Below, piece after piece: positions 7,289-45,621 of a stretch of 54,731 nucleotides of DNA. Both the position numbers and the translations under genes were made by a program. This DNA is from an uncultured Acidobacteriota bacterium (GTDB taxonomy: Bacteria > Acidobacteriota > UBA6911), in assembly GCA_964353465.1 (NCBI GenBank), contig CAYGWQ010000003.1, positions 1 through 54,731 on the forward strand. The letters are read 5' to 3'. Under the pieces are notes generated by a model, which saw only the letters and a list, made by a program, of their open reading frames with translations, had not been told where the DNA came from and searched no databases. The first letter of the stretch is position 1. Every line of letters starts with the position of its first letter.

Positions 7289-7289
7289 A

Positions 7290-10508: not shown

Positions 10509-10548
10509 ATTTTCATTCCAGAGGCTGGAATACCGATTTATCGGGCCC

Positions 10549-10575
10549 ACTTTCGTGTATTTCGTGTATTTTGTG
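10549..10575. repeat. 9-bp tandem repeat R3 (TATTTCGTG x3, imperfect)
   Basis: actttcgtg-tatttcgtg-tattttgtg. It lies 3 nt from the stop of the upstream gene (10579) and 40 nt upstream of the GH2 start (10508). Confidence 0.85.
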
Positions 10576-10578
10576 GTT

Positions 10579-13425: not shown

Positions 13426-13518
13426 ATTGTGTTCCTCTGCTCCAAAATTGGGTATGTCCCGGCCGCGGCCTGGACACGGATCGGCGCACGCAGTTATTGA
13501 CCTCGGCAGCCAGAGCCC

Positions 13519-13635
13519 CGTCCGGCGGCCGGGGCCTACTTGGCCGAACCCAGGTGGGCGCCGGATGCCAGACGGCGCTCCTGTTCTTTTATCGCAACAC
13601 CGCAAGCCTCGTCCGGCGGCCGGGTCCTACTTGGC
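13519..13635. repeat. two copies of a 26-bp direct repeat (CGTCCGGCGGCCGGGNCCTACTTGGC) 91 bp apart
   Basis: Copies are at 13519-13544 and 13610-13635 and differ at one position. They lie in the intergenic region between CDS 13656..15860 and the start of CDS 10579..13425. Confidence 0.8.
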
Positions 13636-13655
13636 ACGCCGGTTGACGCATCCTC

Positions 13656-15860
13656 CTAGAGAAGTGATGGATTCAAGTCTTCCCAGCGTACAGTCCAGGA
13701 CCCATCGCGCGGGAATCCCGGCGCCTGCGAGCTTGCCGCTCCCCGCCACCCGGCCGCCATCATTGCGATTGCATAAAGCAGCCCGCCGTTTCCCGGCAAG
13801 TAGCACGGCAGATCCTTGCGCTGCCAGTTGTGGCCGTTGGCAAGGTATTTATTTTTCTCTGTACTCATCATGAGTGCCTCGATCGCCAGTTCGGGTTCGC
13901 CCAGCCGCGCTGCCGTCATGGCAGTCAACGGATAATCCCAGCCCCAGGTCCTCTCCCACTGCCATTCTTTCATCACTTTGTAAAGCGTGCGGCGCATGGT
14001 TTCGCGATCCACGCCCTCCCCGGGCAAAACGCCGAGCGCCCCAAGCATCGAGGGATGGTCGAAATTCCGTTCCGAGTAAGTCTGCGGGCAATTCTCGTGG
14101 GCAAGATAGACGCCCGCTTGCACGGGCAGGGGCGTCAGGTGGGATATAACATCATCCCATTCAGAGTTGCGTTTCATCCCCGACAGCTCGCGCCATTGCT
14201 GAGCGATGTTCAGCCCATAGGCCCAGTAGGCCAGCTCGAACGTCGGATTCCACGTTTCCCGAGGCGGATGGTTCTCCTGAGCCGGGATGACAGGCGGCCC
14301 GAGCACATACCGTTGCGATTTCGGATCCGGAAAAGCATACGAAGCCATGAATGCCGCCGACTCGAAGACGAGGGACCCATATCGCTTGAGCGCCGCCCGA
14401 TCCCCGAGGACCCGGCGGCACAACTCGGCATAGAAAATCGGATGAGGTTGCTGCCAGATGAGCAACGGCCCGATCGGAGAGGGGCTATCGCGGCCTTCCG
14501 GTCCGACCATCTTCGGCCAGCGGGCCCCGTTATAGCCTTGGGCCACAGCCGTGCGGCGCGCTGCCGGCAGGATGGAGTGGTACCAGGCGAGGCTCCTTTC
14601 CAGCAAGGGGAGCCGGTTCCACACGGCGAAGTGAGCTGCGTGCCACCAGTGCATCTCGAGATGGAACTTGCCGTACCAGCTGTTTACGGTCAGTCCCGTC
14701 TCCTGCGGCGGCATCGATCCGCAACATTGAATGGCAGTCAGGTATTGCGACAGCACAATGCGGCGCTCCAGTTCAGGTGCTCGCGGGTCCCTGCTGCCGG
14801 CCAGTTCGACGGCACCGCCGCGCGTCCAGAAGCGTTTCCAGTGCGTGGCGCTCTCCGCAAGAGACGAGGCGGCACTCGGCAGAGACCTGTTCGATGGACG
14901 CGGGGAAAACGATACGACAAATTCCAGACGATGGTTCTCCTTTGCCGGAGCCAGGAGAAAATCATGAATATCTTCGGCGGTGAAAGATGCCCGGCCGGTC
15001 CAGTGGACTGCCGCAAAATATTCTTCTGCGTCCAGCTTGCGGCGGATCTCGGCGCGCTCAGCGGTGTTCCTGATTAGGTCGGATTTATGCCGGTCAGGTT
15101 TTTGCCAATCGGCGGCCTGCATGCCCGGCGAGCCGTAGGGAAAGGAAAAGTGAACAGCGAGTCGCCCCTCATCGATCAGTGAAGACTCGATGAGTACGGC
15201 GAGCAGATCCAGGGCCGGATGAACCGCTGTCGTAACCGCAACCGTGCGGCCTTCAACTACAAAGCGGCTCATTAGCCTGCCCGCCCAGAGATCCAGTTTT
15301 TGGTCGATATCGCCAATGTCTTCCGCCTGGACCTCTCTTCCGCCGGCCATCTTCATGCGCAGGCCGATCCGGCCGAGATGCAGACGGTGAGGATTCTCCC
15401 TCAGCCAGGTGTAGAGTTCGCTTTGGCCTGCCGCGCTGGTTGCGTAGCCGACTTGTCGGCCGTGAGTATCGTAAGGGACAAGGCGCAGCGCCCCGGGATC
15501 GAGACTCGCCGGCACCGGCGCGGCGTGCCACCCCCACTGGGACATCGTGCAAAGCGGCATGGTCTGCGCGTACTTTGCGGGGAAGGTCTGCAGCCCCGTA
15601 ATGTCGGCGGTGAAGGCGAACTCGCCGTTGCCGAGAGAAAACGGCGACAGCGGATCGAGCTTCCGCAGCCTGGGATCGTGGCGGGCAACAAGAGCCGCCC
15701 GGTCAATCCGGACCGTTCTGCCGGATTGCGCGCCTGGAATTGAGGCCCCCTGACCGGGAATCGCGAAATGCTGCGGCCGATTGAATACAGCAATGCCCGC
15801 CGGGATCAGCCCCCCTGACGCTGCCAGTTTTTTGAGAAACCTGCGCCGCGGAATCTTCAT
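13656..15860 (-). CDS. Tat-exported putative glycoside hydrolase of unassigned family
   Basis: Inside ORF 13656..15986. The start is at ATG 15860, giving MKIPRRRFLKKLAASGGLIPAG (twin-arginine signal). It is a protein of about 730 aa embedded in the pectin cluster. The Trp/His-rich segment NSWYGKFHLEMHWWHAAHFAVWNR suggests an (alpha/alpha)6-type glycosidase, but I cannot assign a family. Confidence 0.7.
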   Translation of the reverse strand: MKIPRRRFLKKLAASGGLIPAGIAVFNRPQHFAIPGQGASIPGAQSGRTVRIDRAALVARHDPRLRKLDPLSPFSLGNGEFAFTADITGLQTFPAKYAQTMPLCTMSQWGWHAAPVPASLDPGALRLVPYDTHGRQVGYATSAAGQSELYTWLRENPHRLHLGRIGLRMKMAGGREVQAEDIGDIDQKLDLWAGRLMSRFVVEGRTVAVTTAVHPALDLLAVLIESSLIDEGRLAVHFSFPYGSPGMQAADWQKPDRHKSDLIRNTAERAEIRRKLDAEEYFAAVHWTGRASFTAEDIHDFLLAPAKENHRLEFVVSFSPRPSNRSLPSAASSLAESATHWKRFWTRGGAVELAGSRDPRAPELERRIVLSQYLTAIQCCGSMPPQETGLTVNSWYGKFHLEMHWWHAAHFAVWNRLPLLERSLAWYHSILPAARRTAVAQGYNGARWPKMVGPEGRDSPSPIGPLLIWQQPHPIFYAELCRRVLGDRAALKRYGSLVFESAAFMASYAFPDPKSQRYVLGPPVIPAQENHPPRETWNPTFELAYWAYGLNIAQQWRELSGMKRNSEWDDVISHLTPLPVQAGVYLAHENCPQTYSERNFDHPSMLGALGVLPGEGVDRETMRRTLYKVMKEWQWERTWGWDYPLTAMTAARLGEPELAIEALMMSTEKNKYLANGHNWQRKDLPCYLPGNGGLLYAIAMMAAGWRGAASSQAPGFPRDGSWTVRWEDLNPSLL

Positions 15861-16031
15861 TCGCACACCAATGGTGAGAAATGCTCTGTATTTATCGTCC
15901 TGTCGGCGATCCGGTCTGGTTGATATATTGCGAACATGTGGCCCCGGAAGTAAAGCCCGATTTTTCGTCCAGGGCCCGTATTGCAATATGAAACATGCCT
16001 TGATCTATGAAGTAGCGCAGCAGAAAAAACC

Positions 16032-16097
16032 GGAACCACGAAATACGCGAAATACACGAAATCACAGGGGCGATCTTTTCGTGTATTTCGTGGTTCC
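16032..16097. repeat. R4: inverted pair of the 9-bp repeat forming a long hairpin
   Basis: GGAACCACGAAATAC (16032-16046) is the perfect reverse complement of GTATTTCGTGGTTCC (16083-16097). The left arm carries one extra 9-bp unit (GCGAAATAC). It sits in the divergent region between starts 15860(-) and 16416(+). Confidence 0.85.
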
Positions 16098-16415
16098 TGA
16101 ATGCGGGTCATCCGGGCACTCGCCATATCATGGCGGACCGACAAACCGGGATGCTGAGCCCCCGGCACAGATCTGTTCCTTATCAGATGTTTTGCAGTGC
16201 GCAACACAGGGTGAGGTTTAAAAAGCTCTTGACGCAAATCCGGCAGGTGATCAGGATACGACTTGGTGCTTTCCAATGATCGCTTGCGTTCATAGGGGAG
16301 CCGCTGCTCGCCCCTGTGTTCCTCCATTTTCGCCTTTTCAGATGCAGCAAAGCGGCAAAAGGGACTTCTTCGACATTTTGTGATTCTGTGCCACAGAATA
16401 GCAGCGAGGTAAACC

Positions 16416-18608
16416 ATGGGATACTACTTCGAAGATCATCAGAGCATGTTTGCGCGAGTCGGCGGGCAGGTGGAGAAAACCCTCGACAGCATTGTCAAGC
16501 GGTATGTGGGGCAGAATCCGCCTCATCCTCTGACCTTCCGGGCCTATAGTAGGAGAGGCATCTTGCGAGGCAAAGACTATCGCTACCACGCAGACTTCAA
16601 TGAGGTCTTTCCCGAAGCGGAACGCGAGCAGTTCGTGTGCGCATGGGCGAGGTATTGGGCAGATACCGCCTTGGAACTGAAATTCGACGTAACCTGTTTC
16701 GGCCCGATCGTCCTTTATTGCAACGGACAGGTCATCTTCAAATCCAACATTTTCTCCGAGCGCTACAGCGATCAGAGGCACTCCCTGTTTATCCCCGTGC
16801 AGGCAGGCTGGAACCATCTCGTCATCCGGTTCAAAAAGACCCGCGCTGGTTTTGGCGGCATTTTCGGGACCTGGCTCGGCAAGCTTCCTTATTACTTCCT
16901 GATGCCGACGGAAGAGAGGAAGGGACAGGAGGGCTGGATCTTCACGGGACCAATGTCCGCCGAGCTTCCCACCCTGCCTGGCGCGGGCATGAGCGAGAAA
17001 GACACCGGCCTCCAATGGTACCCGGAACAGGAATGGGATGCGGCCAAACGGAAGTTGGCGCAGCTTCAGCGGATCTACGGGCTCATGCCCGATACCTTTG
17101 CAGTAGGGTGGACCCGGGCCCGTTTCATGCGCCCGGGCACGGGCGAGTATGCCTTGAAGGGCCGCCATCACGGCCCGATTGAGGTGTATGTCAAAGACAA
17201 GCTGGTGTACAGCGCCCGATCATCGGGGAAAATCGCCGCCGGTATCCGGGCTCCTTTCGGAAATCACGATGTGATGGTCAAGTGCGGGTGCGGGCGCGCC
17301 GATTGGGGCTTCGATCTTTCGATTCGAAACGGGAATGATCCCGTTCCCATTATCAGTCCCTGCAACATCATGGGCAGTTCTCAGGCATGGCTCTACATCG
17401 GCCCTTTCGCACAATCCGCAAAACTCGATCTGAAGAAGCTGAGAGATTTGAGCAAAGTCTTCCCCAGCGTGGAGCGAGAAACCTACTGGCGTCTCGACAT
17501 GCCGGACACGTGGCTGCGGCCGTACAACGAAAATCCCCTGTACGGCAGGTGGAACTATCCGCTGGGCGTGACTCTATACGGGCTGCTTCACAGCGCCAAG
17601 GCGATCGGCTCGGAGGAAGTTCAGCAGTACGTCGTCAGGCATATCCAGTTCTGCTGTGACATGTTCCGCTATGCCTTGTGGGATAAAGAGCAATACGGCG
17701 GCGCCACGACGGTGCATCACCTGTTGTCCAGCATCGACAGTCTGGACGACTGCGGCTCCTTTGGGTCCTGCATGCTTGAAGTTGCCAGGCATTTCGAGAT
17801 ACGAGGCTATAAGCAGATCGCCGAATATGTCGCGGATTACATATCCAACAGGCAGATCCGGCTCCCCGACGGCACATTCTTCCGCAAAAACCTGATGCAC
17901 GTCTTTCATGAGAACACCATGTGGGCGGATGACCTCTACATGAGTGTTCCCTTCCTCTGCCGGTATTATCAACTGACCGGAGACACCAGGTATATCGACG
18001 ACGCGGCCCGGCAATTCCTGGGATTCAAGAAGCACCTTTTCATACCCAAGTGGAAAGTCATGTCTCACGTGTACGACTTCAAGCGGCAGATGGCCACAGG
18101 AGTGCCGTGGGGGCGCGGCAACGGTTGGGTACTCTTTTCGCTCTCCGAGCTGCTCGCGGTGTTGCCCAAGGACCATGCTCAAAGGCCCGCGGTACTGGAG
18201 ATGTTCCGCGAGCTGTGCCAAGGGTACCTCGCCCTGCAGGACGAAGCGGGCATGTGGCACCAGGTGCTGAACCACCACGATTCCTATCCGGAAACCTCCT
18301 GCACATCGATGTTCACTTACGCGTTTGCAAGGGGAATACAATACGGCTGGCTGGAAAAGCCGGAGGCTTACATCCAGGCGGTATTCAAGGCCTGGGAAGC
18401 GCTCAACAAGATCTCCATCGATCAGGGGGGCAACGTGCATGGCGTCTGCCGGGGCTCGGAGTTTTCCTTCACTCCGGAGTACTACAAGAAAGAGCTCCTG
18501 TGGAATCTGAATGACACGCACGGCATCGGAATTGTCCTGCTGGCCGGTGTGGAAGTTCTGCGGTTGATGAAGCACCTGGCATCCGAATCGAAGAGGAAGA
18601 TGAGATGA
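16416..18608 (+). CDS. unsaturated rhamnogalacturonyl hydrolase (GH105, YteR/YesR-like) with ~340-aa N-terminal extension, cytoplasmic
   Basis: The C-terminal half carries GH105/GH88 hallmarks: WADDLYMSVPFL, WGRGNGW, ETSCTSMFTYA, DTHGIGIVLLAG. There is no signal peptide. The stop overlaps the next start (ATGA at 18605-18608). Confidence 0.9.
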   Translation: MGYYFEDHQSMFARVGGQVEKTLDSIVKRYVGQNPPHPLTFRAYSRRGILRGKDYRYHADFNEVFPEAEREQFVCAWARYWADTALELKFDVTCFGPIVLYCNGQVIFKSNIFSERYSDQRHSLFIPVQAGWNHLVIRFKKTRAGFGGIFGTWLGKLPYYFLMPTEERKGQEGWIFTGPMSAELPTLPGAGMSEKDTGLQWYPEQEWDAAKRKLAQLQRIYGLMPDTFAVGWTRARFMRPGTGEYALKGRHHGPIEVYVKDKLVYSARSSGKIAAGIRAPFGNHDVMVKCGCGRADWGFDLSIRNGNDPVPIISPCNIMGSSQAWLYIGPFAQSAKLDLKKLRDLSKVFPSVERETYWRLDMPDTWLRPYNENPLYGRWNYPLGVTLYGLLHSAKAIGSEEVQQYVVRHIQFCCDMFRYALWDKEQYGGATTVHHLLSSIDSLDDCGSFGSCMLEVARHFEIRGYKQIAEYVADYISNRQIRLPDGTFFRKNLMHVFHENTMWADDLYMSVPFLCRYYQLTGDTRYIDDAARQFLGFKKHLFIPKWKVMSHVYDFKRQMATGVPWGRGNGWVLFSLSELLAVLPKDHAQRPAVLEMFRELCQGYLALQDEAGMWHQVLNHHDSYPETSCTSMFTYAFARGIQYGWLEKPEAYIQAVFKAWEALNKISIDQGGNVHGVCRGSEFSFTPEYYKKELLWNLNDTHGIGIVLLAGVEVLRLMKHLASESKRKMR

Positions 18609-19468
18609 TGCGGATCGGCGTGCGCGCTCACGATTTCGGGAAATTGCCCGCCGAGGAACTTGCCGGCAGGATTGCGGCCAAGGGCCTCTCGTGCGTTCAA
18701 TTGGCTTTATCCAAGGCCATCGCCGGCATCGATTTGAAACCGGGCGAGCTGAATCCCGGCATGGCATTCCACATCGGGCAGGCGTTTCACCGGCACGGGC
18801 TGCAAATCGCTGTGCTGGGCTGTTACATAAATCCGATTCATCCCGATCCGGAGACGAGACGTGTGCTGCTGGGCCTCTTCAAGGAGCACCTGCGGTTCGC
18901 CCGCGATTTTGGCTGCGGCCTGGTGGCTCTGGAGACCGGGTCACTCAACGCCGACTATTCGTTTCATCCAGACAACCATGGAGAGCCCGCTTTTCAGATC
19001 TTTCTCTCCAGCATTGCCGCGCTGGTCGAAGAGGCCGAGACATTCGGCGTGATCGTGGGCATCGAAGGAGTGACCACCCACGTCGTCTCCACACCCGCCA
19101 GGATGCGAAAAACTCTCGACATCATAGGATCCAATCATCTCCAGGTTGTATTCGACCCGGTGAATCTGCTGTCGGCAGACAACTATCAGGACCAGGATCG
19201 TGTCTTGCAGGAAGCGTTCGATCTGTACGGTGATCGCATCGTCGTCGTTCACGCCAAGGATTTCATCGTGGAAGACCGGACGTGGAAAACAGTGCGCACG
19301 GGCCGCGGATGTCTCAACTATCCAATGTTGCTGGGAATGATCCGAAAGAGGAAGCCATACATCAGTATTCTGTTGGAGGAGGTGAGCGAGGACACGGTCG
19401 AGGAATGCCTGCAGTTCCTCCACAAGACGGCATCTGCTGCACACGAACATTCTGCCGTAAAAACTTGA
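18605..19468 (+). CDS. sugar phosphate isomerase/epimerase (xylose-isomerase-like TIM barrel)
   Basis: MMRIGVRAHDFGKLPAEELAGRIAAKGLSCVQLAL... is typical of the AP-endonuclease-2 / xylose-isomerase-like TIM family. It is translationally coupled to the GH105 gene. Confidence 0.8.
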   Translation: MMRIGVRAHDFGKLPAEELAGRIAAKGLSCVQLALSKAIAGIDLKPGELNPGMAFHIGQAFHRHGLQIAVLGCYINPIHPDPETRRVLLGLFKEHLRFARDFGCGLVALETGSLNADYSFHPDNHGEPAFQIFLSSIAALVEEAETFGVIVGIEGVTTHVVSTPARMRKTLDIIGSNHLQVVFDPVNLLSADNYQDQDRVLQEAFDLYGDRIVVVHAKDFIVEDRTWKTVRTGRGCLNYPMLLGMIRKRKPYISILLEEVSEDTVEECLQFLHKTASAAHEHSAVKT

Positions 19469-26527: not shown

Positions 26528-27679
26528 CTACGTCCAATAGAAAACGGGGACACAGCAGTCCGGCGCCAGGTTCGCCCAGCGCAATGCGGTCTCGGGAAGG
26601 AAATAGAATACGATGCAAAGCATGATGTAGACAGCCAAAAGCTGTACGCCCTCCATCCAATTGGACTCCCCATCACGCGCAATCTCGTTGGTAATGATCA
26701 CTGCCAGGAAGATGGCAAGCACTTCCGCCGGAGTGAAAACCAGGTTCATCGGTTCCGGCCCCACAAAAAGACTGGCCACAACAAGAACAGGGGCCACGAA
26801 AAGAGCGATCTGGATGCTGCTGCCGATGGCGACACCCAGACTGAGGTCCATACGGTCCTTTGCGGCCAGGACCACCGCCGTGCTGTGTTCGGCGGCGTTA
26901 CCGATGATCGCCACGATCACCAGGCCGACAAAAAGGCTGTTCAGACCGAAGGCATGCGCGGCCATTTCCACCGAGCCGACGAGGATTTCACTCATCCAGG
27001 CGATCAGCGCAGTGACCAGACCCAGCAAGAGCAGGCTCTTGCGGAGAGGCCATGCCGAATGCTTCTCATCCGCCACGGTGGCGCCCTCGCCCCGGTGGCC
27101 GGCAAAGAAGTGCTTATGGGTGCGCAGGCCGAAAATGAGCGACAGCCCGTACGTAATCAGCAGCACAACCGCAAACTCCAGGCTCAGATCCGCCTCGGCT
27201 ACCCGCCCTTGCGGTCCGGCGAGCCAGTGAAATGCCGCCGGCAGGATCAACCCGATGGTGGCCAGCGTCATCATGGTTGCCTGGATCCGGGCGCCGCCGG
27301 CATGGAAAGCCTGCGTCTTGTGCTTGAAGCCGCCGGCCAGAAAGGCGGCTCCCATAACCAGCAGAATGTTGCCGATAATGGACCCGGTCAGCGAAGCCTT
27401 GACGACATCGTAGAGCCCGGCGCGCAAGGCGACAAGAGCAATGATCAGCTCCGCTGCGTTGCCGAAAGTGGCGTTGAGGAGCCCGCCGACGCCTTCACCG
27501 GCGCGCGCCGCCAGGTGTTCCGTGGCTTTTCCCATCCAGCCGGCGAGAGGGATGATGGCGAGACAAGCTGCAAGAAAAATAGTCCCATGCCAATCGCGGC
27601 CGATGAATTCCAGCGCCACGGTGATGGGGAGGAAAACCAGCAACCAGTCGAGTCTGGGCTTGAGCCACGAGCGCTTCAT
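26528..27679 (-). CDS. cax: Ca2+/H+ antiporter (CaCA family, ChaA/Cax type)
   Basis: Polytopic membrane protein with the two alpha-repeat signatures GNAAELIIALVAL and GNAAEHSTAVVLA that are typical of calcium/proton exchangers. Confidence 0.9.
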   Translation of the reverse strand: MKRSWLKPRLDWLLVFLPITVALEFIGRDWHGTIFLAACLAIIPLAGWMGKATEHLAARAGEGVGGLLNATFGNAAELIIALVALRAGLYDVVKASLTGSIIGNILLVMGAAFLAGGFKHKTQAFHAGGARIQATMMTLATIGLILPAAFHWLAGPQGRVAEADLSLEFAVVLLITYGLSLIFGLRTHKHFFAGHRGEGATVADEKHSAWPLRKSLLLLGLVTALIAWMSEILVGSVEMAAHAFGLNSLFVGLVIVAIIGNAAEHSTAVVLAAKDRMDLSLGVAIGSSIQIALFVAPVLVVASLFVGPEPMNLVFTPAEVLAIFLAVIITNEIARDGESNWMEGVQLLAVYIMLCIVFYFLPETALRWANLAPDCCVPVFYWT

Positions 27680-27705
27680 GCGTGTCTGTCTCCCGTAGAG
27701 CGATG

Positions 27706-27731
27706 AAAAAGCCTGAGCCCGCCTGGGCTCA
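27706..27731 (-). terminator. candidate intrinsic terminator after CDS 27729..29036
   Basis: On the minus strand the sequence reads UGAGCCC-AGGC-GGGCUCA followed by GGCUUUUUC. The stem includes the stop codon. The U-tract is short and offset by 3 nt, so the call is modest. Confidence 0.4.
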
Positions 27732-29036
27732 ACGCAACTTCAGGCGATGGATGACCATCTTCTCAGGGTATAGCCGAACCGGTTGATTGCGCCTGTCAAA
27801 TCCCATCTCGGGCTGTTCAGCGAGCCAGAAGGCGCCCTCACCGCAAGCGATTGCATTGACAGGGTAGTTCAGCGGTTCAAAGCTTCGTACCTTCCCCGAC
27901 TGGGTATCTATTCTCAGAATGACGCTGAGACGAGGCCGTGTCTTGTCGAACCCGTACCAGTTGTCCAGCGGCTTGCCGTCCGCGCCCAGCTTTACTTTTT
28001 CGATGGTTCCCGTGCCCACAAGATCGGCGCCATCAAAGTCCAGACCGCCTACGCCGTAGATCCGGTATCCCTCCAATTGAACGTTCATCGCCGCGCCCGC
28101 CTCGCCGGTCTCCGGGTTGACCTTCTGGATGCCGAGGTGGCTGGCAACGAACAGCGCGCCCTCGCGGAATGCGATGCCACGGGCGCCATACACCTTGCTG
28201 ATCTTGTTCGCAGCGGTCTCGACGGCGAGCCCCCATTCCTCCTTCCTGAGGTCGAACCGCAGGATGCCCTGCCCTGCGGTCCAGCCGTAGGGGAGGAGGT
28301 AAAGGATGTTCCCGTCGCTGGCAAGATCAACATAGATATCCGTGCCCTTTACCGCAATCGTCCGTTGCGTCTTGCCCGTCGCCGGGTCCAATGCATACAA
28401 AGTGTTCTTGTGCAGGCAATAGAGCACGCTCCCGACCCGGCACAGGCCGCTCAGACGATCATCCACCGGCGCTTTGAAAACCGAGCTCGTGCCGGCCTTT
28501 GAAATACTTGCGGGGCGCGGGGCGCGGGCATCCCATTCTTTGTCGGCCCGGTAGAGTGCGAACCGTGTCAGCGCGGTTTCCATCTGATGCAGAAAAGGTG
28601 CGGTTTCAGCATAGCCGCTCCAGCGGAAGATATTTTCCTCTTTCGCGCTGAGAATGAGCATGCTGGGATAGGCGGAGACGGAGAACCTCTTGGCGAGCTC
28701 TGGCGTGACGTCTCGGTCCACGACTACGCAATTGAACTTCCCCGCTAATTCGAGCAATTCCGGTTGGGAGAAAGAACCTTTCTCCAGCCTGGCGCACCAC
28801 GTTCACGTCGCATACGTGAAATAGGCAAAGATGGGCTTGCCGTTCCGGCGGGCGAGGTTCAGGGCTTCCGCGTAAGAGTAGGAGAAGGGAACTTTCCCCA
28901 GGACGCGATGTGGTTCCTTCGCCGGCTCCTGCACAGAAGGCTGCTGGTGATCAGCGCTTGTCGCGGCTGACCCGGCGGAGTTGAAACAGAGGCCACAGCC
29001 CAGCAACAGGATTGCCGGATACATCTTCAGTCGCAT
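27729..29036 (-). CDS. candidate selenoprotein: exported thioredoxin-fold (U-x-W-C) domain fused to a beta-propeller-like domain; in-frame TGA at 28805-28803
   Basis: ORFs 28803..29264 and 27729..28757 share one frame and are separated only by one TGA. Read-through gives ...GKPIFAYFTYAT-U-TWCARLEKGSFSQPELLELAGKFNCVVVDRDVTPELAKRFSVSAYPSMLIL..., a complete Trx-like fold with TGA at the first redox Cys position. The start ATG 29036 (AAGGGA upstream) gives the lipoprotein-like signal MRLKMYPAILLLGCGLC. A hairpin follows the TGA (see next feature). The alternative reading is a nonsense pseudogene. Confidence 0.6.
28760..28792 (-). promoter_or_regulatory. candidate bacterial SECIS hairpin downstream of the in-frame UGA
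   Basis: The minus-strand RNA reads UGA-ACGUGGUGCG-CCAGG-CU-GGAGAAAG-GUU-CUUUCUCC-CAA-CCGG. There is an 8-bp perfect upper stem (28767-28785) with a G/U-containing apical loop, plus a lower helix CC(A)GG/CCGG with an internal loop. The stem begins 17 nt after UGA. Confidence 0.5.
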
Positions 29037-29165
29037 GACATCCCTTTCCCGGCCGAATCTGGTTCGAGCCGCTGATGGCGCCCCTATTGTAGCGTTTCCC
29101 GATACACGATCTGAATCGAATTCTGTTTTTTTGGAACTGAAGATAAAACTCAGCTTGCTCAGCTC

Positions 29166-29434
29166 GTATCTGTTGCGAGATGCCTTCCGAGCCCTCGCGG
29201 CAAAGCCCTGGAGGGGCGGAAAGATAGTAGCCGGGGGCGCAAGCCCCCGGATAGGATGTTGCATTGAAGGAGCCCTGGTAGGGGCGAAAGAGCATTGTAT
29301 GTACCCTCGTTCTCTCGCCCCTCCAGGGCTCCGAGATGCTCTCCCATCCGACCCCGGGCTTGCGCCCGGGGCGACTCTCTGGCCGCCCCTGCGGGGCTGG
29401 GCTGGAGGGCGGAGCGAATTTCACGATTGAGTCC
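29166..29434. repeat. structured palindromic MITE-like element, copy A (inverted relative to B and C)
   Basis: It contains GCCCTGGAGGGGCGGAAAGATAGTAGCCGGGGGCGCAAGCCCCCGGATAGGAT, a central palindrome, and then the inverted second arm ...CCCCGGGCTTGCGCCCGGGG...GCCCCTGCGGGGC. The end motif GTATCTGTTGCGAGATGCC lies at 29166. The element sits in the divergent region between starts 29036(-) and 29833(+). Confidence 0.8.
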
Positions 29435-29832
29435 AGCTCGCCGACCTTAGGGGCGAAGGGCAAAGTGGTCAAGGGACATGGGAAAACCGGGGACCAAAAT
29501 CAGGGCTGATCGCAGATCTTGCCCTTGAAACTTCGAATGAGGGCATCCAGCAGCCCTTCTACTGTGAAGTACTCTGTTGCAAGGAGGTCCTTGAGCCATG
29601 ATCCTAATGTCCTTTGGCTCCTTGAACCGACTCGAACAAACGCAGCCCGATCCTTATTATTTTCAATCAGTTGTGTAATTTCCGAGACGTGCTATACTGG
29701 CCCGGTTCCCCGGTCCCGCATGACCGGGAATGATAGAGCAGCCAATTCATGTTATGGAATACCGGACAGGAACGGCACATACCGTGAGAGTCGTGACCCG
29801 CGAGTCTCGCATCATGCAGGGAACTGCACCTT

Positions 29833-31248
29833 ATGAGAAAAACGAAAATTGTCTGCACGATTGGTCCGGCCAGCCGCAGTCAGGAAAAGCTGGAGGCGCT
29901 CATCCTCGCCGGAATGGATGTAGCCCGCCTGAACTTCTCCCACGGGACCCATGAAGAGCATGGTCAGGTAATCCGTTCTGTGCGGGAAATCAGCGCGCGC
30001 CTGGGGCGCTCTGTGGCGATTCTGCAGGATTTGTGCGGCCCCAAGATCCGCACCGGCGCGCTGCAGGGCGGCGCCGGGGTGAACCTGGCAGCGGAGGCGG
30101 AGATCACCATAACCACCCTGCCCGTGTTGGGAAATGCCTCGCTGATTGCAACCACTTACTCCAGCCTTCCCGCGGATGTCCGACCCGGCGACCGCATCCT
30201 TCTTGCCGACGGAATGATGGAGCTGCAGGTGCTCGCCACCGACTCGACTTCGGTGCGCTGCCGCGTTGTGCATGGAGGTCTCCTTGGAGAGCACAAGGGC
30301 ATGAATTTGCCCGGAGTGCCCTTGAGCACACCCGCCGTTACCGAGAAGGACCTTGCCGACCTCGATTTTGGCGTGGCTCACGGCGTGGATTATGCGGCCA
30401 TCAGTTTTGTGCGCCAAGCGGATGATTTACTGCAGGTGCGGCATCTGCTCCAGGAGCGCCAGGCAGATATCCCGATTATCGCTAAGATAGAAAAACCGGA
30501 GGCGGTGCAAAACCTGGATGCAATCCTGGCAGCGTGCGATGGCGTCATGGTGGCACGTGGAGACCTCGGAGTAGAGGTGAACCCGGAAAAGGTTCCCATT
30601 TTACAGAAGCAGATCATCGAGGCGGCCAATTGCCGCGGTGTGCTTGTTATTACCGCCACTCAGATGCTGGAATCGATGATAACCAATCCCCGTCCCACGC
30701 GCGCGGAAGCAAGCGACGTGGCCAACGCTATCCTGGACGGCACCGATGCCGTCATGTTGTCTGCCGAAACATCCATAGGGCAATTTCCCCTGGAAGCCTT
30801 GAAGATGATGGTGCGCATCGCCCTGGAAGCGGAAGCCAGCGGCCGGGGGAGTGCCGCAGCAGAGCAGAAACGCTGCCGGTATCCCCAGGCGATTGCGCAC
30901 GCGGCGTGCACGATCGCCGGGGACCTTGAGCTCAAGGTGATCTGTGCCTTTACCCAATCGGGCCATACCGCACGCCTGGTTTCCAAGGAACGGCCCGGCG
31001 TGCCTATCCTGGCCTTCACGCACACTCCGCTCGTCTTCAACCGTGTGGCTCTCTATTGGGGCGTATCGCCCCTGCTGGTGGGCTTTGCCGGCAGTGCCGA
31101 GGATCTGTTCCAATGCGTTGAGGCGGAGCTCCTCACTCGACGCCTGGCAGCGGTTGGCGATTCCGTGGTCGTTCTCGGCGGTATGCCCCTGGCCATTGGA
31201 GGGGCAACCAATTTCCTGCGCATCCTGCGCGTGGGCGACGGCAGATGA
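29833..31248 (+). CDS. pyk: pyruvate kinase
   Basis: MRKTKIVCTIGPAS...MDVARLNFSHGTHEEH...GPKIRTG...IIAKIE...MVARGDLGVE... are canonical pyruvate kinase motifs. Confidence 0.95.
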   Translation: MRKTKIVCTIGPASRSQEKLEALILAGMDVARLNFSHGTHEEHGQVIRSVREISARLGRSVAILQDLCGPKIRTGALQGGAGVNLAAEAEITITTLPVLGNASLIATTYSSLPADVRPGDRILLADGMMELQVLATDSTSVRCRVVHGGLLGEHKGMNLPGVPLSTPAVTEKDLADLDFGVAHGVDYAAISFVRQADDLLQVRHLLQERQADIPIIAKIEKPEAVQNLDAILAACDGVMVARGDLGVEVNPEKVPILQKQIIEAANCRGVLVITATQMLESMITNPRPTRAEASDVANAILDGTDAVMLSAETSIGQFPLEALKMMVRIALEAEASGRGSAAAEQKRCRYPQAIAHAACTIAGDLELKVICAFTQSGHTARLVSKERPGVPILAFTHTPLVFNRVALYWGVSPLLVGFAGSAEDLFQCVEAELLTRRLAAVGDSVVVLGGMPLAIGGATNFLRILRVGDGR

Positions 31249-39070: not shown

Positions 39071-40795
39071 TTAGGCTCCATTCTCCTTTTCCTCGAATAG
39101 CGGCACGATTTGGAACCGGCCCACGTCTACCAGCCCCTTGTCGGTGATCTTGAGCGCTGGTATTACGGGCAGGGCCAGAAAGGAGATGGCCGTGAACGGG
39201 TCGCGCAGATGGGAACCGAGCTGATGTGCGGCACGGATAAGGTTTTCCATCTGATCGCGCACCGCTTCGATCGGCTGATCGCTCATCAGTCCGGCGATGG
39301 GCAAAGGAAGCCTGGCCACGACACGGTCGCCTTCGACGGCAGCCATGCCGCCACGCATATCCGCAACGGCGTGTGCCGCAGTCATCATAGCAGCATCATC
39401 CACGCCCACGACGACGATGTTGTGGCTGTCATGGGCAATGGTCGAAGCGATTGCGCCGCGTCGCAGCCCTATCCCTCGCACCAGTCCCAATCCGAAGTTT
39501 CCGGTAGCCAGGTGCCGCTCGATGACGGCAATCTTGGCCACATCATGGCCCGGATCACTGACCACCTCTCCCGCCCTGATGGTCAGATCTTCCACCAGAT
39601 GTTCCGTGATCAGCTGGTCGGGAATCACGCCAATAACGCGCCCGCGCCGCCCCTGCGCGGGAATGCGCAGGTCCACCCGTTCCCAGTTGACATTCATGGA
39701 GGAGCGCAGGACAGCCGGTTTTAGCGGCCGTTCCCAGGCAATGACCTCGCCGTCCCGCGCAGCGAGCCGCCCGCCCCGAAAGACCATCTCTGCCCGGATA
39801 TTGTTGAGATCGGAGAATACCACCAGATCGGCGCGCTTGCCCGGCGCGATACCGCCGCGGTCGAACAACCGAAAATAGTTAGCGGTATTGAGCGTGGCCA
39901 TCGCGATCGCCATGAAAGGAGAAACCCCTTCCGAAACAGCTTTGCGGATCAGGAAATCAATGTGTCCTTCATTCAGCAGGTCCGCCGGCTGCCGGTCGTC
40001 GGTGCAGAAGCATACGCGGGGCCCGTTGGCGACAGTGAGCCCCGGAATAAGGCTGAGAAGATTGCGTGCGTTGGTTGCCTCGCGGATGAACACCACCATT
40101 CCCAGGCGAAGTTTTTCCCTCATCTCTTCGACGGTGGTGGATTCATGATCGGATCCGATGCCTGCCGCCACATACGCCACCAGGTCCCGGCCCGTCAGTC
40201 CCGGCGCGTGCCCGTCGCGGATTCCCTCCTCGAATCCTCGCAGTTTGTTGAGCACTTCTTCGTCGCCGAATATGACGCCGGGAAAGTTCATCATTTCACC
40301 CAGGCCCAGCACCCAACGGTCGCTCAGGTAATGCGAAATGTCATACCACCTCAGGTAGGCGCCGGCCGTTTCCATATCCGTTGCAGGCACGCAGGAAGGC
40401 ATCATGACATACACAGAGAGGGGGTTGTATTTGGCGGCATCGAACATGTAGCGGATGCCTTCCAGGCCCAGCACGTTGGCAATCTCATGAGGATCAATGA
40501 TGACGGTGGTCGTCCCGCGCGCGACCACCGCGCGGGCGAACTCATGCGGCGGGACCATGCTGCTTTCAATGTGAACGTGCGCGTCGATAAAGCCTGGACA
40601 GACATAGCGCCCGCCCAGGTCCATCACCTGACGGGCGGTGTAGCCGGAGCCCACGCCGGCGATTCGGCCATCGGCCAGCGCAATGTCGGTGGGATAGGTT
40701 TCTCCCGTGTAGACGTTGACAATACGCGCATTCGTCAACAGCATCTCGGCGGGCTCGGTTCCCCGCGCCAGCTTGATGATCTGGGCCAATTCCAT
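39071..40795 (-). CDS. ade: adenine deaminase
   Basis: LLTNARIVNVYTGE...GGRYVCPGFIDAHVHIESSM...TTVIIDPHEIANV... is typical of the Ade/AdeC amidohydrolase family, as is the size of about 570 aa. Confidence 0.9.
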   Translation of the reverse strand: MELAQIIKLARGTEPAEMLLTNARIVNVYTGETYPTDIALADGRIAGVGSGYTARQVMDLGGRYVCPGFIDAHVHIESSMVPPHEFARAVVARGTTTVIIDPHEIANVLGLEGIRYMFDAAKYNPLSVYVMMPSCVPATDMETAGAYLRWYDISHYLSDRWVLGLGEMMNFPGVIFGDEEVLNKLRGFEEGIRDGHAPGLTGRDLVAYVAAGIGSDHESTTVEEMREKLRLGMVVFIREATNARNLLSLIPGLTVANGPRVCFCTDDRQPADLLNEGHIDFLIRKAVSEGVSPFMAIAMATLNTANYFRLFDRGGIAPGKRADLVVFSDLNNIRAEMVFRGGRLAARDGEVIAWERPLKPAVLRSSMNVNWERVDLRIPAQGRRGRVIGVIPDQLITEHLVEDLTIRAGEVVSDPGHDVAKIAVIERHLATGNFGLGLVRGIGLRRGAIASTIAHDSHNIVVVGVDDAAMMTAAHAVADMRGGMAAVEGDRVVARLPLPIAGLMSDQPIEAVRDQMENLIRAAHQLGSHLRDPFTAISFLALPVIPALKITDKGLVDVGRFQIVPLFEEKENGA

Positions 40796-40945
40796 GGGCT
40801 GATCTCCTTATCGTTGTTTGCCTATCCGTCGCGAGCCTCTGTCGCCTGAGCCTTACGATTCGTCAATTGGTTGCCGGATCCATGGCCATACGGCCCCAAA
40901 ATGTTCCAGCTGATTCCCGAAACGCGGATCACCCTCCGCCCGGCA

Positions 40946-42301
40946 CTATTTATTCCGCCATCCTCTCACCGGCCCCGGGTGGAAAAAATCTTCCGGCACC
41001 ATCACGCCGTCGCGCTTAAAGACCATGCCGCTTTTCATGACAAACTGGACATTGCGCAGGGCGTCGATATCCGTCAAGGGATTGCCCGGCACGGCAATGA
41101 TGTCGGCGTACATTCCCGCTTTGATCGGACCGCGCTCCCTGTCCACATCGGCGGCCTTGTAGCCATTGACCGTTAGCGCACGGAGAATGTCGGGGGCCGG
41201 AATGCCCGCCGCCTTCCAGGTCAAGAGGAAGTTGATCGTAAGCTCTCCCCTGGTCAGCCACCGGCCGGTCTTCTCGTCCTTCATCCGGTCATTCCAATAG
41301 TCGAAGTCCGTGGAAAAAGTCAGCGGCACCTTGTTCGCAAAGGCACTTTTCAGTTTGGCAACCGTGCGCTCAAATGCCTCCTTCGAACCCCGGTACGGAG
41401 TGAAGGGCGTATCGGTGCCCGCCAGGAAAATGCCCTTCTGGGCCATCGCCTTGTGATGCTCCTCCGTCAGCGCGCTGCCATGGGCAATGATATACACCCC
41501 CGCTTCAATGGCGCGCCGCGCGCCATCCGGCGTCTGCACGTGCCCTTCCACCTTGCAGCCTCCGGTCGCCGCCTCCTTCATGGCAAGCTTGATATCGTCG
41601 ACCGAGTAGCCCCAAGGCTTGCAATCAATGCAGAGCTTGATGGTTTTGGCTCCGAACAGCATGTTCTCGCGGACCGCGCGTACGATCTCGTCCGGGCTGT
41701 TGGCATCAATGTATTCCGGATACATGATGTTGTGATTCTTATACATTTCCGGCGAAGGCCAGAACTGCCCGCCGGTGCTGCCGATCATCGGCCCTGAGGG
41801 GATCACGGTCGGACCCGGAAGCCATCCCTGTTCAATGGCCTGTCTCAGCGCCGCGTCCGCATACAGACCATTGTTCCCGACGTCCCGGACAACTGTGAAC
41901 CCGGAGCTCAGCAGCTGTATGCCATTGGAAGCAGCTTGAATCGCCCGCAGCGGCGTCGAGTCCATCACGTACGTCAGGTAATAATAGTTATTCTCCGGCA
42001 CTTCCTTGTAGGTTATGGCCATGTGCGTGTGGGCGTCGACCAGTCCCGGCAGTACCGTCAGTTTTGAAAGATCGATGACGCTCGCACCCGGAGGAATCGG
42101 CAGATCGGAGCCGACCTCTTTAATCCTCTCCCCCTGGATCAAAATGATCTGGTTTACGGCCGCCATTCCCGTTTCGGGATCGATGAGCCGGCCGGCTCGG
42201 ATGGCGGTTATGCCGGATTGCGCCGGCGGAGCCGCGATTTGCGCCCCGATCGGCAAGGCCAGCAGCAAAAGTGAAGTCGCGCAGGCTATTCGTCTCAACA
42301 T
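40946..42301 (-). CDS. exported amidohydrolase-family metallohydrolase (substrate unknown)
   Basis: GAAAGGAG lies upstream. The signal is MLRRIACATSLLLLALPIGAQ. LPGLVDAHTHM and the later H...H...D pattern are typical of the amidohydrolase superfamily. Confidence 0.8.
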   Translation of the reverse strand: MLRRIACATSLLLLALPIGAQIAAPPAQSGITAIRAGRLIDPETGMAAVNQIILIQGERIKEVGSDLPIPPGASVIDLSKLTVLPGLVDAHTHMAITYKEVPENNYYYLTYVMDSTPLRAIQAASNGIQLLSSGFTVVRDVGNNGLYADAALRQAIEQGWLPGPTVIPSGPMIGSTGGQFWPSPEMYKNHNIMYPEYIDANSPDEIVRAVRENMLFGAKTIKLCIDCKPWGYSVDDIKLAMKEAATGGCKVEGHVQTPDGARRAIEAGVYIIAHGSALTEEHHKAMAQKGIFLAGTDTPFTPYRGSKEAFERTVAKLKSAFANKVPLTFSTDFDYWNDRMKDEKTGRWLTRGELTINFLLTWKAAGIPAPDILRALTVNGYKAADVDRERGPIKAGMYADIIAVPGNPLTDIDALRNVQFVMKSGMVFKRDGVMVPEDFFHPGPVRGWRNK

Positions 42302-42521
42302 ACTACTCCTTTCAGGAAGGGGTAATGCTTTTCAGCGTATCTCGCATTTGTATCGCGCCGGCGCCGGGAGGGCAAGCCCGATTTGCAGGGCATATGCTTG
42401 CGTCTCATCGCGCATTCATGGATGTCCGGGAAAACCCGACGGAGAAAACAGGCGGGGCTGGCGCACCGCAATAGAAGCCAGGCAAAATCCGCATAGAGAA
42501 TATCCGTTATCACTGGAACAT

Positions 42522-43901
42522 TCACGAGCAACGGCGCGCGGCGCGCCGGATAAACCGTCCATACCCCGTTTCGCCGAGCCATACCCCTTTTTCCACAACA
42601 ACCCTGCCACGGCACAGAACCGTCTCGGCATCCCCCTGAACCCGGAAGCCCTCATACATAGAGTAATCCACACGCATGTGATGAGAGCGCGCCGAGATCG
42701 TGTGTTCCCGGCAGGGATCCCACACGACGATATCGGCATCGCTGCCCACAGCAATCACACCCTTGCGCGGCCAGAGGCCAAACAGCTTGGCCGGCGTCGT
42801 CGACACGATATCCACCCAACGATGCAAGGTGATGCGTCCCTGGGTCACGCCATGGTGAAACAGCAGCTGCAAGCGATTTTCAACGCCGGGACCGCCGTTG
42901 GGGATCCTGGCAAAACCTTCGCGTGCGCACTCCATCTTGAATTTCGAATACACGGGACAATGGTCGGTAGCAACAACCTGGATGCTGTTTTCCTGCAGCC
43001 CCTGCCAGAGTCTGTCCTGGTCCCTCTTTTCGCGTGCGGGGGGCGAAAAGACGTATTTCGCTCCCTCGAAGTCCGGACGGTCGAGGTCTGCGATCGAAAG
43101 CAGCAGATATTGGGGGCAAGTCTCGGCGAAAACCGGGAGACCCTCCGCGCTAGCTTGGGCGATTTGTTCCAGCGCATCGGCGGCGGAAAGATGCACGATG
43201 TATACGGGCGCCCCCGCCAGCCTGGCCAGCGCGATGGCACGGCCCACGGCCTCCGATTCCGCGGCGGACGGACGGGTAAGCGCATGATGGATGGGCAGAA
43301 TGTCGCCCGCAGCGATCGCCTCCTGCACCAGGAGGTCGATCATCAGGCCATTCTCCGCGTGGAGGCACACGAGCCCGCCGTTTTGTGTCGTCCGCCGCAT
43401 TGCGCGCAGGATGGTCCGATCGTCGGCCATCAATGATTGCGGATAGGCCATGAACAGTTTGAAGCTGGGCACGCCTGCATGCACCATTTCGTCCAGGTCC
43501 TCCAGATGTGCTTCGGGCAGATCCGTGACGATTATGTGGAGGCCGTAGTCGACCGTTGCCTTCTCGCCCTTTTTCAGCCAGATGTCCAGGGCGTCGCGCA
43601 TTCTCATGCCACGGGACTGGACTGCAAAATCGATCAGGCAGGTCGTTCCGCCGAAAGCGGCCGCGCGCGTGCCGGTTTCAAAATCATCACTCGTCACGGT
43701 GCCGCTGAACGGCATATCAAGGTGAGTATGGACATCTACACCACCCGCGATCACGTACTTCCCCGTTGCATCGATGACCTTGTCTGCCCGGATCCCAAGG
43801 TCCTCGCCGATGGCCTTGATCGTTTCATCTGCGATATAGATGTCCGCGCGGAAATCCCTATCGGCAGTTACAATTCGGCCATTCCTGATAAGGATGGACA
43901 T
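42522..43901 (-). CDS. hydA: dihydropyrimidinase / D-hydantoinase
   Basis: MSILIRNGRIVTADRDFRADIYI...IAGGVDVHTHLDMPF.GT...DDFETGTRAAAFGGTT is the canonical cyclic amidohydrolase N-terminus. The start lies 8 nt after the stop of the upstream gene. Confidence 0.9.
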   Translation of the reverse strand: MSILIRNGRIVTADRDFRADIYIADETIKAIGEDLGIRADKVIDATGKYVIAGGVDVHTHLDMPFSGTVTSDDFETGTRAAAFGGTTCLIDFAVQSRGMRMRDALDIWLKKGEKATVDYGLHIIVTDLPEAHLEDLDEMVHAGVPSFKLFMAYPQSLMADDRTILRAMRRTTQNGGLVCLHAENGLMIDLLVQEAIAAGDILPIHHALTRPSAAESEAVGRAIALARLAGAPVYIVHLSAADALEQIAQASAEGLPVFAETCPQYLLLSIADLDRPDFEGAKYVFSPPAREKRDQDRLWQGLQENSIQVVATDHCPVYSKFKMECAREGFARIPNGGPGVENRLQLLFHHGVTQGRITLHRWVDIVSTTPAKLFGLWPRKGVIAVGSDADIVVWDPCREHTISARSHHMRVDYSMYEGFRVQGDAETVLCRGRVVVEKGVWLGETGYGRFIRRAARRCS

Positions 43902-43909
43902 ACCGTTCC

Positions 43910-45265
43910 CTACTCGCCGGACACCAAACGGCGGGCTATGCGGTTGTGCCTTTCGATCAGGGGCACCAGGTCTATGGTCAGCAGGCTGCCACCCTGGACC
44001 ACAACCCTGCCGTTAATGATGGAGAGGTCCACACGCTGGGGCGCGCAAAACACCAGGGCAGCCATCGGGTCGTGAAGCGCTCCGGCATAGTCGAGCCGAT
44101 CCAGGCGGAAACCGATCAAATCGGCAGCCTTGCCCGGCGCCAACACTCCGATATCGTCGCGGCCCAGGACGCTTGCGCCGCCGGCCGTCGCCAGCCACAG
44201 GGCATCTCCGGCGGATAGGGCCGCCGGGTTCCCGGAGACGCGCTGCAACAACAGCGCCATCCGCGCCTCTGCGAGCAGGTGGGAAGAGTCATTGCTGGCC
44301 GAGCCATCCGCTCCCAATCCGATTCGGACTCCTGCATCGAGAAACGCCCGGACCGGCGCAATGCCGGATGCCAGGCGCATGTTGGAACTGGGGCAGTGGC
44401 ATACACCGGTGGCGGTTCGCGACATCCGTCCGATCTCCGCTGCATTGATATGCACCCCATGTGCGTACCAGACATCGCTGCCGACCCAATCCAGGCTCTC
44501 GGCATACGCCACCGGCCGCCGGCCGAACCGGCCGAGGCAGAATTTCTCCTCATCCAATGTCTCTGCCAGGTGAGTGTGCAGGTGCACACCATAGAAACGG
44601 GCTAAAGCCGCGGACTCGCGCATTAAGTCCGGTGTCACCGAAAATGGGGAACAAGGGGCGACAACAATCCGCTGCATGGCGTACAACCGAGGGTCGTGGT
44701 AGGTCTCGATGGCGCGCCGCGTCTCTTTGAGAATAAATCCCTCGTCCTCCACCACCCGGTCCGGCGGCAGCCCGCCTTTGCTCTCCCCCAGACTCATCGA
44801 ACCCCGGCTGGCGTGGAAGCGGATGCCTATCTCGTGTGCCGCTTGAATCTCGTCGTCAATGCGGCAGCCATCCGGGTAAATATACAGATGATCGGAAGCG
44901 GTGGTGCAGCCGGACAGGATCAATTCGGCCAGACCGACTTGGGCGCTTGTATAGATGGCTTCGGGCGTCAACCCGGCCCAGATGGGATATAGAGTCTTGA
45001 GCCATTGGAAAAGCGTGGCGTCCTGCGCTGCCGGGACAGCGCGCGTCAGAGTCTGACAGAGATGGTGGTGGGTATTTACCAGTCCGGGCAGGATGATCAT
45101 GCCGGCGGCATTCATGACCTGGTCGGCGGTAGCGGGCAGCTCGGCGGTTGGCCCGACCTGTTCTATGACGTTGTCTCGAATCCATACGCCGCCGTCTGAG
45201 ATACAGCGACGGTGCGCGTCCATGGTCACCAACAGATCAGCATGTTTCACCAGCAGCGTAGGCAT
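43910..45265 (-). CDS. 8-oxoguanine deaminase-like aminohydrolase (guanine/cytosine deaminase-related; occupies the position SsnA has in E. coli)
   Basis: Inside ORF 43910..45280. ATG 45265 is preferred, with GGAGA 9 nt upstream. TLLVKHADLLVTMD...GGVWIRDNVIEQVGPTAELP..ADQV...LPGLVNTHHHLCQTLTRAVPAAQDA.LF.WLKTLYPIW closely recalls proteins annotated as 8-oxoguanine deaminase. Confidence 0.75.
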   Translation of the reverse strand: MPTLLVKHADLLVTMDAHRRCISDGGVWIRDNVIEQVGPTAELPATADQVMNAAGMIILPGLVNTHHHLCQTLTRAVPAAQDATLFQWLKTLYPIWAGLTPEAIYTSAQVGLAELILSGCTTASDHLYIYPDGCRIDDEIQAAHEIGIRFHASRGSMSLGESKGGLPPDRVVEDEGFILKETRRAIETYHDPRLYAMQRIVVAPCSPFSVTPDLMRESAALARFYGVHLHTHLAETLDEEKFCLGRFGRRPVAYAESLDWVGSDVWYAHGVHINAAEIGRMSRTATGVCHCPSSNMRLASGIAPVRAFLDAGVRIGLGADGSASNDSSHLLAEARMALLLQRVSGNPAALSAGDALWLATAGGASVLGRDDIGVLAPGKAADLIGFRLDRLDYAGALHDPMAALVFCAPQRVDLSIINGRVVVQGGSLLTIDLVPLIERHNRIARRLVSGE

Positions 45266-45286
45266 AAGCTCGATCTCCATATAACT

Positions 45287-45587: not shown

Positions 45588-45621
45588 ACTGGTTTCCACC
45601 CATCCCTCGGCCGCCTGGATG

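Follow-up and report, generated by a model that had tools for sequence, protein, structure and literature searches.

Are two adjacent open reading frames (ORFs) in the DNA of an uncultured Acidobacteriota bacterium two genes for hypothetical proteins, or one gene whose internal TGA codon is read as selenocysteine (Sec)? The ORFs, 28803..29264 and 27729..28757, lie on the minus strand of a 54,731-nt stretch of contig CAYGWQ010000003.1, which was analysed whole and is called the window throughout. They share a frame, with 15 sense codons (TWCARLEKGSFSQPE) between the TGA that closes the first and the TTG at 28757 that opens the second. A sequence-only reading of this DNA had taken the pair for a candidate selenoprotein gene hidden as two ORFs, and had described the common frame, the one TGA and the 15 sense codons just as we find them in coordinates and sequence. 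The results set out below make it very probable that the two "hypothetical" ORFs are one gene, that its internal TGA is read as Sec, and that this is a genuine selenoprotein gene which has been mis-annotated.

From ATG 29036 to the stop codon at 27731-27729 the minus strand holds 435 codons in a single frame, the sole internal break being the TGA at 28805-28803; apart from it, the frame of the window copy is free of stops and frameshifts. Read through from this ATG, the junction is ...GKPIFAYFTYAT-[TGA]-TWCARLEKGSFS... The upstream ORF as listed starts farther out, at 29264, and runs over an Acido-Lenti-1 RNA motif detected with Rfam. As this motif occupies 29204-29250, and as relatives conserve a start (MR(L/P)KMYP...) at the position of ATG 29036, the listed start was rejected and ATG 29036 is predicted to be the true one. 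The upper limit of 29036 given in the sequence-only reading is thus the real start; the ORF from 29264 that it also listed overlaps the RNA motif, and that start does not stand.

A protein search returned 34 relatives, and the DNA of 36 related loci, from Acidobacteriota, Planctomycetota (including a Brocadiaceae metagenome-assembled genome, MAG) and Gemmatimonadota, was read at the aligned codon. This codon was TGA in 30 homologous genes and TGC or TGT in 7. TGA was found in all six relatives of the window's own clade (L015-L020; 62-91% identity) and in 24 further, more distant genes from Planctomycetota, Gemmatimonadota and Terriglobia, and the seven TGC/TGT loci belonged to Vicinamibacteraceae, Phycisphaerales, Planctomycetota and two metagenome contigs. 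Where the homologues did not have TGA, the aligned residue was always Cys, and the peptide ...YFT[FY]xx-[U/C]-xWCxxLE... ran unbroken across the codon in every locus. Such a TGA/Cys pattern is, as judged from the alignment, beyond chance. A column of Cys or TGA, with conservation continuing on both sides of the junction, is what the sequence-only reading had expected of a selenoprotein gene split in two.

The twelve closest database proteins (60-93% identity) were 259-349 residues long and all started after the CxxC, each at a different codon. Since the entries for Sec forms begin variously (LLELAG, MAGQF, VDRDF, MLVLS, MWCK...) at different downstream codons, there is no conserved internal start. 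All NCBI entries seen for Sec forms were truncated hypothetical proteins lacking the signal peptide and active site. Among the more distant proteins, P0013, P0014, P0015 and P0017 were complete: each had a signal peptide and a CHWC, CSWC or CVWC motif. On the assignments available, the family spans four bacterial phyla, and its Sec forms have been split by annotators in every case examined. For the part 5′ of the TGA, comparison of the window with its clade gave ratios of nonsynonymous to synonymous substitution (dN/dS) of 0.12-0.50, with dS up to 1.1, which argues that this part is translated in the same frame; purifying selection was detected on both sides of the TGA.

Downstream of the UGA the coding sequence can form a perfect 8-bp hairpin with a GUU loop, resembling a selenocysteine insertion sequence (SECIS) element. 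The stem starts 17 nt downstream of the UGA, and the first loop position is +25. The bacterial SECIS (bSECIS) model given in a 2026 review calls for a loop of 3-9 nt, a stem of 4-16 bp, a G in the first two loop positions, a spacing of 16-37 nt and a free energy of -7.5 kcal/mol or lower (PMC13188914), and the window hairpin satisfies these published constraints. When a strict implementation of the rules was run on clade sequences and Cys forms, 5 of 6 clade sequences passed, the window among them, compared with none of the 7 Cys-form genes. In an alignment of five clade members, the codons lying over the hairpin (+6 to +11, LEKGSF) were all synonymously invariant, and nowhere else in the gene did three or more degenerate codons in a row show this; given a background invariant-codon fraction of 0.217, six in a row at a given position have a probability of about 1e-4. 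dS was also lowered across codons +1 to +15 after the TGA. The hairpin is, to judge from these codons, under constraint at the RNA level. Folding of the region near the TGA, which had been put forward earlier as a check, thus gave a SECIS-like hairpin at the right distance, with synonymously frozen codons and absent from the Cys forms.

With U replaced by C, the product scored above the Pfam gathering cutoff of 27 for PF03190 (Thioredox_DsbH/DUF255, 39.1 bits), PF13899 (Thioredoxin_7, 31.0 bits) and PF13098 (Thioredoxin_2, 30.3 bits) over residues 54-148. The match spans the TGA, and so bears out the proposal that this codon stands at the first Cys of a thioredoxin (Trx) C-x-W-C motif inside a module that crosses the junction. 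The solved structures nearest to the Trx domain were 2lst, 3ira (a DUF255 domain), 2kuc and 2ju5; the last was deposited as "Thioredoxin Disulfide Isomerase" and is, we take it, DsbH. Among NCBIfam models the domain resembled DsbH, TsoB and the C-terminal domain of DsbD, with scores far under the cutoffs. An A-Y-P-S loop occupies the cis-proline position, with the role that this residue presumably has in Trx folds generally.

AlphaFold2 (AF2) was used to model P0013, a Cys homologue, and the downstream ORF of the window. P0013 gave a Trx fold and a five-bladed propeller with a predicted local distance difference test (pLDDT) score of 85.5; the mean for the downstream ORF was 87.7, with the propeller mostly above 90. 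In Foldseek searches, the best folds in the PDB for the propeller were type-I (plant/bacterial) glutaminyl cyclases (3mbr, 3nol, 3nok and 2iwa), at template modelling (TM) scores on target of 0.64-0.73 and only 12-16% identity over the two models (0.65-0.73 and 12-15% for the window ORF). AlphaFold2 and Foldseek therefore agree on the beta-propeller-like C-terminal domain that had been suggested from sequence. Among sequence profiles, generic YncE/BamB/PQQ-type blades matched better. Glutaminyl cyclase function is not supported, as the window protein had no PF05096 match at E <= 0.1 and the likeness is at the fold level.

A basic n-region and hydrophobic stretch are present at the N terminus of every full-length clade member. 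The motif LLLGC, from which a lipoprotein-like signal had been proposed, occurs in the window, L015, L016, L017 and L020 and is absent from L019 (WLLGLAAFASG) and from L018 (a different h-region). As its Cys is not conserved in these two, the protein was no longer read as a lipoprotein and substrate of signal peptidase II, and an ordinary signal peptide is more likely.

In the mechanism that we propose, translation would start at ATG 29036, and the UGA at codon 78 would be recoded as Sec by SelB and Sec-tRNA(Sec), SelB being recruited by the GUU-loop hairpin inside the coding sequence, 25 nt downstream. The signal peptide would take the protein across the inner membrane. In the DsbH/DsbD-gamma-like Trx domain, fused to the five-bladed propeller and with the active site U78-T-W-C81, Sec would make the nucleophilic attack and Cys81 would act as the resolving residue, and the propeller may bind a substrate or partner. 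We infer, with a little more confidence than doubt, that the protein works in the periplasm as a selenol/thiol-disulfide oxidoreductase, with reduction or isomerisation the probable direction.

Several results weigh against these interpretations. ARAGORN found no tRNA-Sec in the 54.7-kb window or in any of the 36 related loci, and the 30 largest ORFs of the window, scanned against Pfam and NCBIfam, gave no match to selA, selB or selD; for this genome, the search for Sec machinery covered the window only. Rfam searches of 27500-30000 (E <= 10) and of the whole window returned no SECIS family, only Acido-Lenti-1 motifs. The 76-nt region around the UGA was no more stable than shuffled sequences (z = +0.79), so that it is not energy but position, conservation and the Cys-form control that carry the argument for the hairpin. 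No compensatory covariation was seen, the hairpin of the window clade being invariant. Some family members lack both redox residues (P0044, P0080). That the family can decay is seen in a close relative, L037, which is 79% identical in the propeller but no longer has the Trx/Sec half. The gene neighbourhood gives the functional assignment no support.

That no Sec machinery was found in the window or among its 30 largest ORFs could mean that the gene is stranded: intact in sequence, in a genome where Sec decoding was lost not long ago, with translation terminating at codon 78. Bacteria commonly lose the Sec trait (PMC1794560). The TGA, the hairpin and an intact ORF are all retained, however, in five independent clade members whose identity is as low as 62%, and this would not persist undecoded. 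The window also encodes a YgfK equivalog (TIGR03315; 971 bits against a cutoff of 835) in a purine/pyrimidine catabolic cluster with a xanthine dehydrogenase (XDH)-like molybdenum hydroxylase. Haft and Self reportedly linked YgfK, in 2008, to selenium-dependent molybdenum hydroxylases; by that link YgfK is a weak hint of selenium use, and of a possible second use in this genome, which also speaks against stranding. We consider a stranded gene very unlikely. Acidobacteria are known to have selenoproteins (PMC1794560; PMC12013277). A scan of unannotated gaps in the window for other TGA-split ORFs gave no further candidate.

Less likely again is that the UGA is decoded in another way, by near-cognate read-through as Cys or Trp, or that it is a real stop giving two polypeptides. 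Selenium incorporation into this protein is a prediction, and the downstream ORF has a possible TTG start. Decoding other than as Sec is hard to reconcile with the Cys always found at the aligned position, Cys being the classic partner of Sec, or with a hairpin after the UGA that fits the SelB-type consensus. As for a real stop, the downstream start is unconserved and falls in the middle of the Trx fold, the piece has no signal peptide, and the Trx remnant was of low confidence when the downstream ORF was modelled alone (pLDDT 43-75). The sequence-only reading had likewise held that this piece cannot stand alone.

A decaying pseudogene, in which a TGC or TGT Cys codon has mutated to TGA, is more remote still. 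One base change would suffice, L037 is without the whole N-terminal half, and frame breaks occur elsewhere in the gene in L017, L028 and L036. Yet 30 homologous genes, drawn from four phyla, have TGA at this very codon, both sides of it are under purifying selection, the window copy is otherwise unbroken, and a conserved hairpin is present in the TGA forms only; by these comparisons the pseudogene explanation appears largely refuted already. A one-base sequencing or assembly error has a negligible probability, the same TGA being present in independent assemblies from many samples and projects, and the TGA/Cys column, the continuous peptide and the dN/dS values argue for excluding such an error together with decay. 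The features of the predicted selenoprotein gene are collected in Table 1.

Table 1. Predicted features of the selenoprotein gene and its flanks, in window coordinates.
Feature	Position	Strand	Basis
Complete selenoprotein gene, 435 codons including one Sec-UGA	27729..29036	-	Single frame; homologues colinear over the whole length
In-frame TGA, predicted Sec codon, residue 78	28803..28805	-	Aligned column TGA in 30 genes, TGC/TGT in 7
Redox motif U-T-W-C, residues 78-81	28794..28805	-	Sequence; Cys forms have CHWC, CSWC, CVWC, CYWC, CFWC or CAWC
SECIS-like hairpin GGAGAAAG-GUU-CUUUCUCC	28767..28785	-	Apical loop from 25 nt after UGA; -8.7 kcal/mol
N-terminal signal peptide MRLKMYPAILLLGCGLCFNSAGS, residues 1-23	28968..29036	-	Basic n-region and hydrophobic stretch in every full-length clade member
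Thioredoxin-like domain, DsbH/DUF255/Trx7 type, residues ~45-160	28557..28904	-	Pfam, nearest structures, AF2 of P0013
A-Y-P-S loop at Trx cis-proline position, residues 122-125	28662..28673	-	A122, Y123, P124 and S125 each conserved in >=90% of family
C-terminal five-bladed beta-propeller, residues ~180-435	27732..28499	-	AF2 of downstream ORF; Foldseek
Sigma-70-like promoter candidate TTCAGA, 18-nt spacer, TACAAT	29086..29115	-	~50 nt upstream of ATG; consensus match only
Intrinsic-terminator-like hairpin and T-run right after stop	27703..27732	-	8-pair stem, 4-nt loop, then GCTTTTTCAT

The protein was compared with catalogued selenoprotein families. In NCBIfam release 20, neither the window protein nor any of six homologues, of which five were full-length Cys forms, reached the cutoff of a model. 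A family of DUF255/DsbH type, or one fused to a propeller, was not found among the 119 prokaryotic selenoprotein families of a 2026 inventory, and literature searches combining DUF255 or beta-propeller with selenoprotein found no prior description. As far as these two catalogues were searched, they bear out the earlier remark that the signal and the propeller fusion fit no selenoprotein family that could be named. The replacement of the N-terminal Cys of CxxC by Sec, which the sequence-only reading had called classic, is indeed of a well-known kind among exported Trx-fold UxxC proteins, and the present proteins appear to be new members of that kind.

The Trx-fold UxxC families of the inventory are the Thiol:disulfide interchange protein (PF13098), a thiol-disulfide isomerase-like family (cd02966), and DsbA-like and DsbG-like families; it also lists Trx7/PDZ (CxxU). 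The first of these (UxxC; representative WP_011366075.1) is close in kind, as it has Sec for the N-terminal Trx Cys and Cys homologues, and the window protein passes PF13098. The window protein differs from that family, as the inventory describes it, in scoring higher on PF03190, in its x-W dipeptide and in its propeller of about 250 residues. The Trx7/PDZ (seleno)protein NF041199 likewise joins a Sec-containing Thioredoxin_7-type domain to a second, non-redox domain, but its Sec is at the other end of the motif and its partner is PDZ, not a propeller; the window protein reached 20.6 bits against a cutoff of 300. Scores were similarly low for NF041383 (VPGUxxT type 2; 18.0 against 275) and NF045694 (TsoB; 22.0 against 805). 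The Sec motifs of these three models are CxxU, VPGU and UxxxxU respectively, compared with UxxC in the window, and full-length Cys homologues also fail the cutoffs.

By sequence, the Trx domain is best matched by DsbH (NF043050, PF03190, 2ju5), which is a disulfide reductase of the Chlamydia periplasm, and by the Trx domain at the C terminus of DsbD. Both are also exported and have a C-x-W/x-C active site, and we take both to act as reductases. These proteins use Cys and have no propeller, and the window protein scored 28.4 bits against the NF043050 cutoff of 190. NHLRC2-type proteins combine a Trx-like CxxC domain with a six-bladed NHL beta-propeller; they have Cys, not Sec, belong to a different family and serve here as an analogy only.

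Outside the window clade, the hairpin is placed differently. The main Sec clade (Planctomycetota, Gemmatimonadota and Terriglobia; L003-L014, L022-L036) has an invariant GCCRCGGUCGYGGC hairpin 41-57 nt after the TGA, with a GGUC loop from +44, which falls outside the published 16-37 nt bSECIS window; a consensus-compliant hairpin closer to the UGA was present in only 5 of the Sec genes of this clade. The +44 hairpin was not found in Cys forms. The local peptide is A[TA]V[VA]A in Sec forms that carry it, compared with SSVIE in most Cys forms, and the hairpin appears to fix the local amino acids of these Sec forms. In the alignment 98% of its cells were paired, and one R-Y pair goes from A-U to G-U to G-C without ever being broken; there were no double-sided changes, and covariation was no better than in shuffles and not significant. 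One Terriglobia MAG (L007, contig CAVUAF010000015.1) carries two tandem paralogues, at 2826 and 4112, both with the active-site TGA and the +44 hairpin.

In a neighbour-joining tree, which has no support values, the window clade has two Cys forms, P0013 and P0067, as its neighbours and is separate from the main Sec clade. This topology, together with the two SECIS placements, suggests two independent Cys-to-Sec events, and conversion of Cys to Sec is a typical, general trend for UxxC redox proteins (PMC1794560). We tentatively raise the possibility, which we hold to be rather less probable than its opposite, of an uncatalogued family of exported Trx-propeller selenoproteins, present in several phyla, that gained Sec in at least two separate events and with two different SECIS solutions.

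A profile search of 1.84 billion representative proteins gave 91 clusters with E <= 1e-30. In some 60 of the best-scoring ones (roughly E <= 1e-50) a single stretch matches most or part of the profile, and the weaker matches among the 91 are long multi-repeat propeller proteins. CxWC or CAPC was present in 10 of the 16 longer family members retrieved. P0064 keeps only the second Cys; P0075 and P0118 have an N-terminal DnaJ-like extension of about 350 residues and no motif, and P0104 is a related long form, truncated at its N terminus and also without the motif. The Trx-propeller scaffold thus occurs as well in forms that probably lack redox activity. P0010 (L037/L038/L039 9300-10780; an Acidobacteriia MAG at NCBI) is a propeller remnant that starts near ...ELYRSGREWNA, has neither signal peptide nor Trx/Sec half, lies in a different genomic context and is present in many samples.

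The gene lies between genes for a Na/Ca-exchanger family protein and pyruvate kinase. The promoter-like site upstream and the terminator-like hairpin after the stop suggest that it is probably monocistronic. The promoter candidate is weak (1 site, against 0.7 expected in shuffles); for the terminator-like site (1 against 2.1) the argument is its position, not its count. No neighbour is conserved across the family, and the lineage-specific ones are housekeeping genes (homoserine dehydrogenase, a Cys/Met pyridoxal phosphate (PLP) enzyme) or have no Pfam match.

The purine/pyrimidine catabolic cluster occupies 39071-54655 and encodes adenine deaminase, dihydropyrimidinase, 8-oxoguanine deaminase, the YgfK equivalog, an XDH-like molybdenum subunit, a fused FAD/2Fe-2S subunit, a PLP enzyme and an amidohydrolase-family protein whose best NCBIfam match, under cutoff, is Xaa-Pro dipeptidase. 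The Acido-Lenti-1 RNA motif (RF01687) occurs three times in the window, at 29204-29250 (-), 29352-29398 (+) and 49060-49106 (-); two copies score above the gathering threshold of 37 (39.9 and 39.6 bits) and one is weaker (27.2). In the 800-bp spacer that precedes the selenoprotein gene, two of the copies are arranged as an inverted pair. The remaining copy is between the YgfK and XDH genes, within a 120-aa ORF, 48959-49321, which, because the motif lies inside it, is unlikely to be a gene. In its behaviour the motif resembles a dispersed intergenic repeat, and its presence speaks for an acidobacterial origin of the DNA. At 2883-19468 the window also carries a gene set for pectin/rhamnogalacturonan utilisation, with a PcRGLX-like lyase, a GH28-like protein (GH, glycoside hydrolase family), GH2 with F5/8 type C, GH106 alpha-L-rhamnosidase, GH88 and a xylose-isomerase-like TIM barrel.

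These findings leave the accepted account of Sec decoding as it is. They expose a systematic annotation error, by which Sec forms are truncated to "hypothetical protein", and add a well-supported family to the prokaryotic selenoproteome, in which the phyla concerned, Acidobacteriota, Planctomycetota and Gemmatimonadota, have a poor representation. The two hairpin placements in one family make it a test case for bacterial SECIS models, and its natural series of Sec and Cys forms in one exported oxidoreductase scaffold offers a test of what Sec buys in the periplasm. If the reading of an uncatalogued family with two recruitments of Sec is right, the Trx-propeller fusion would define a new selenium-dependent periplasmic redox module.

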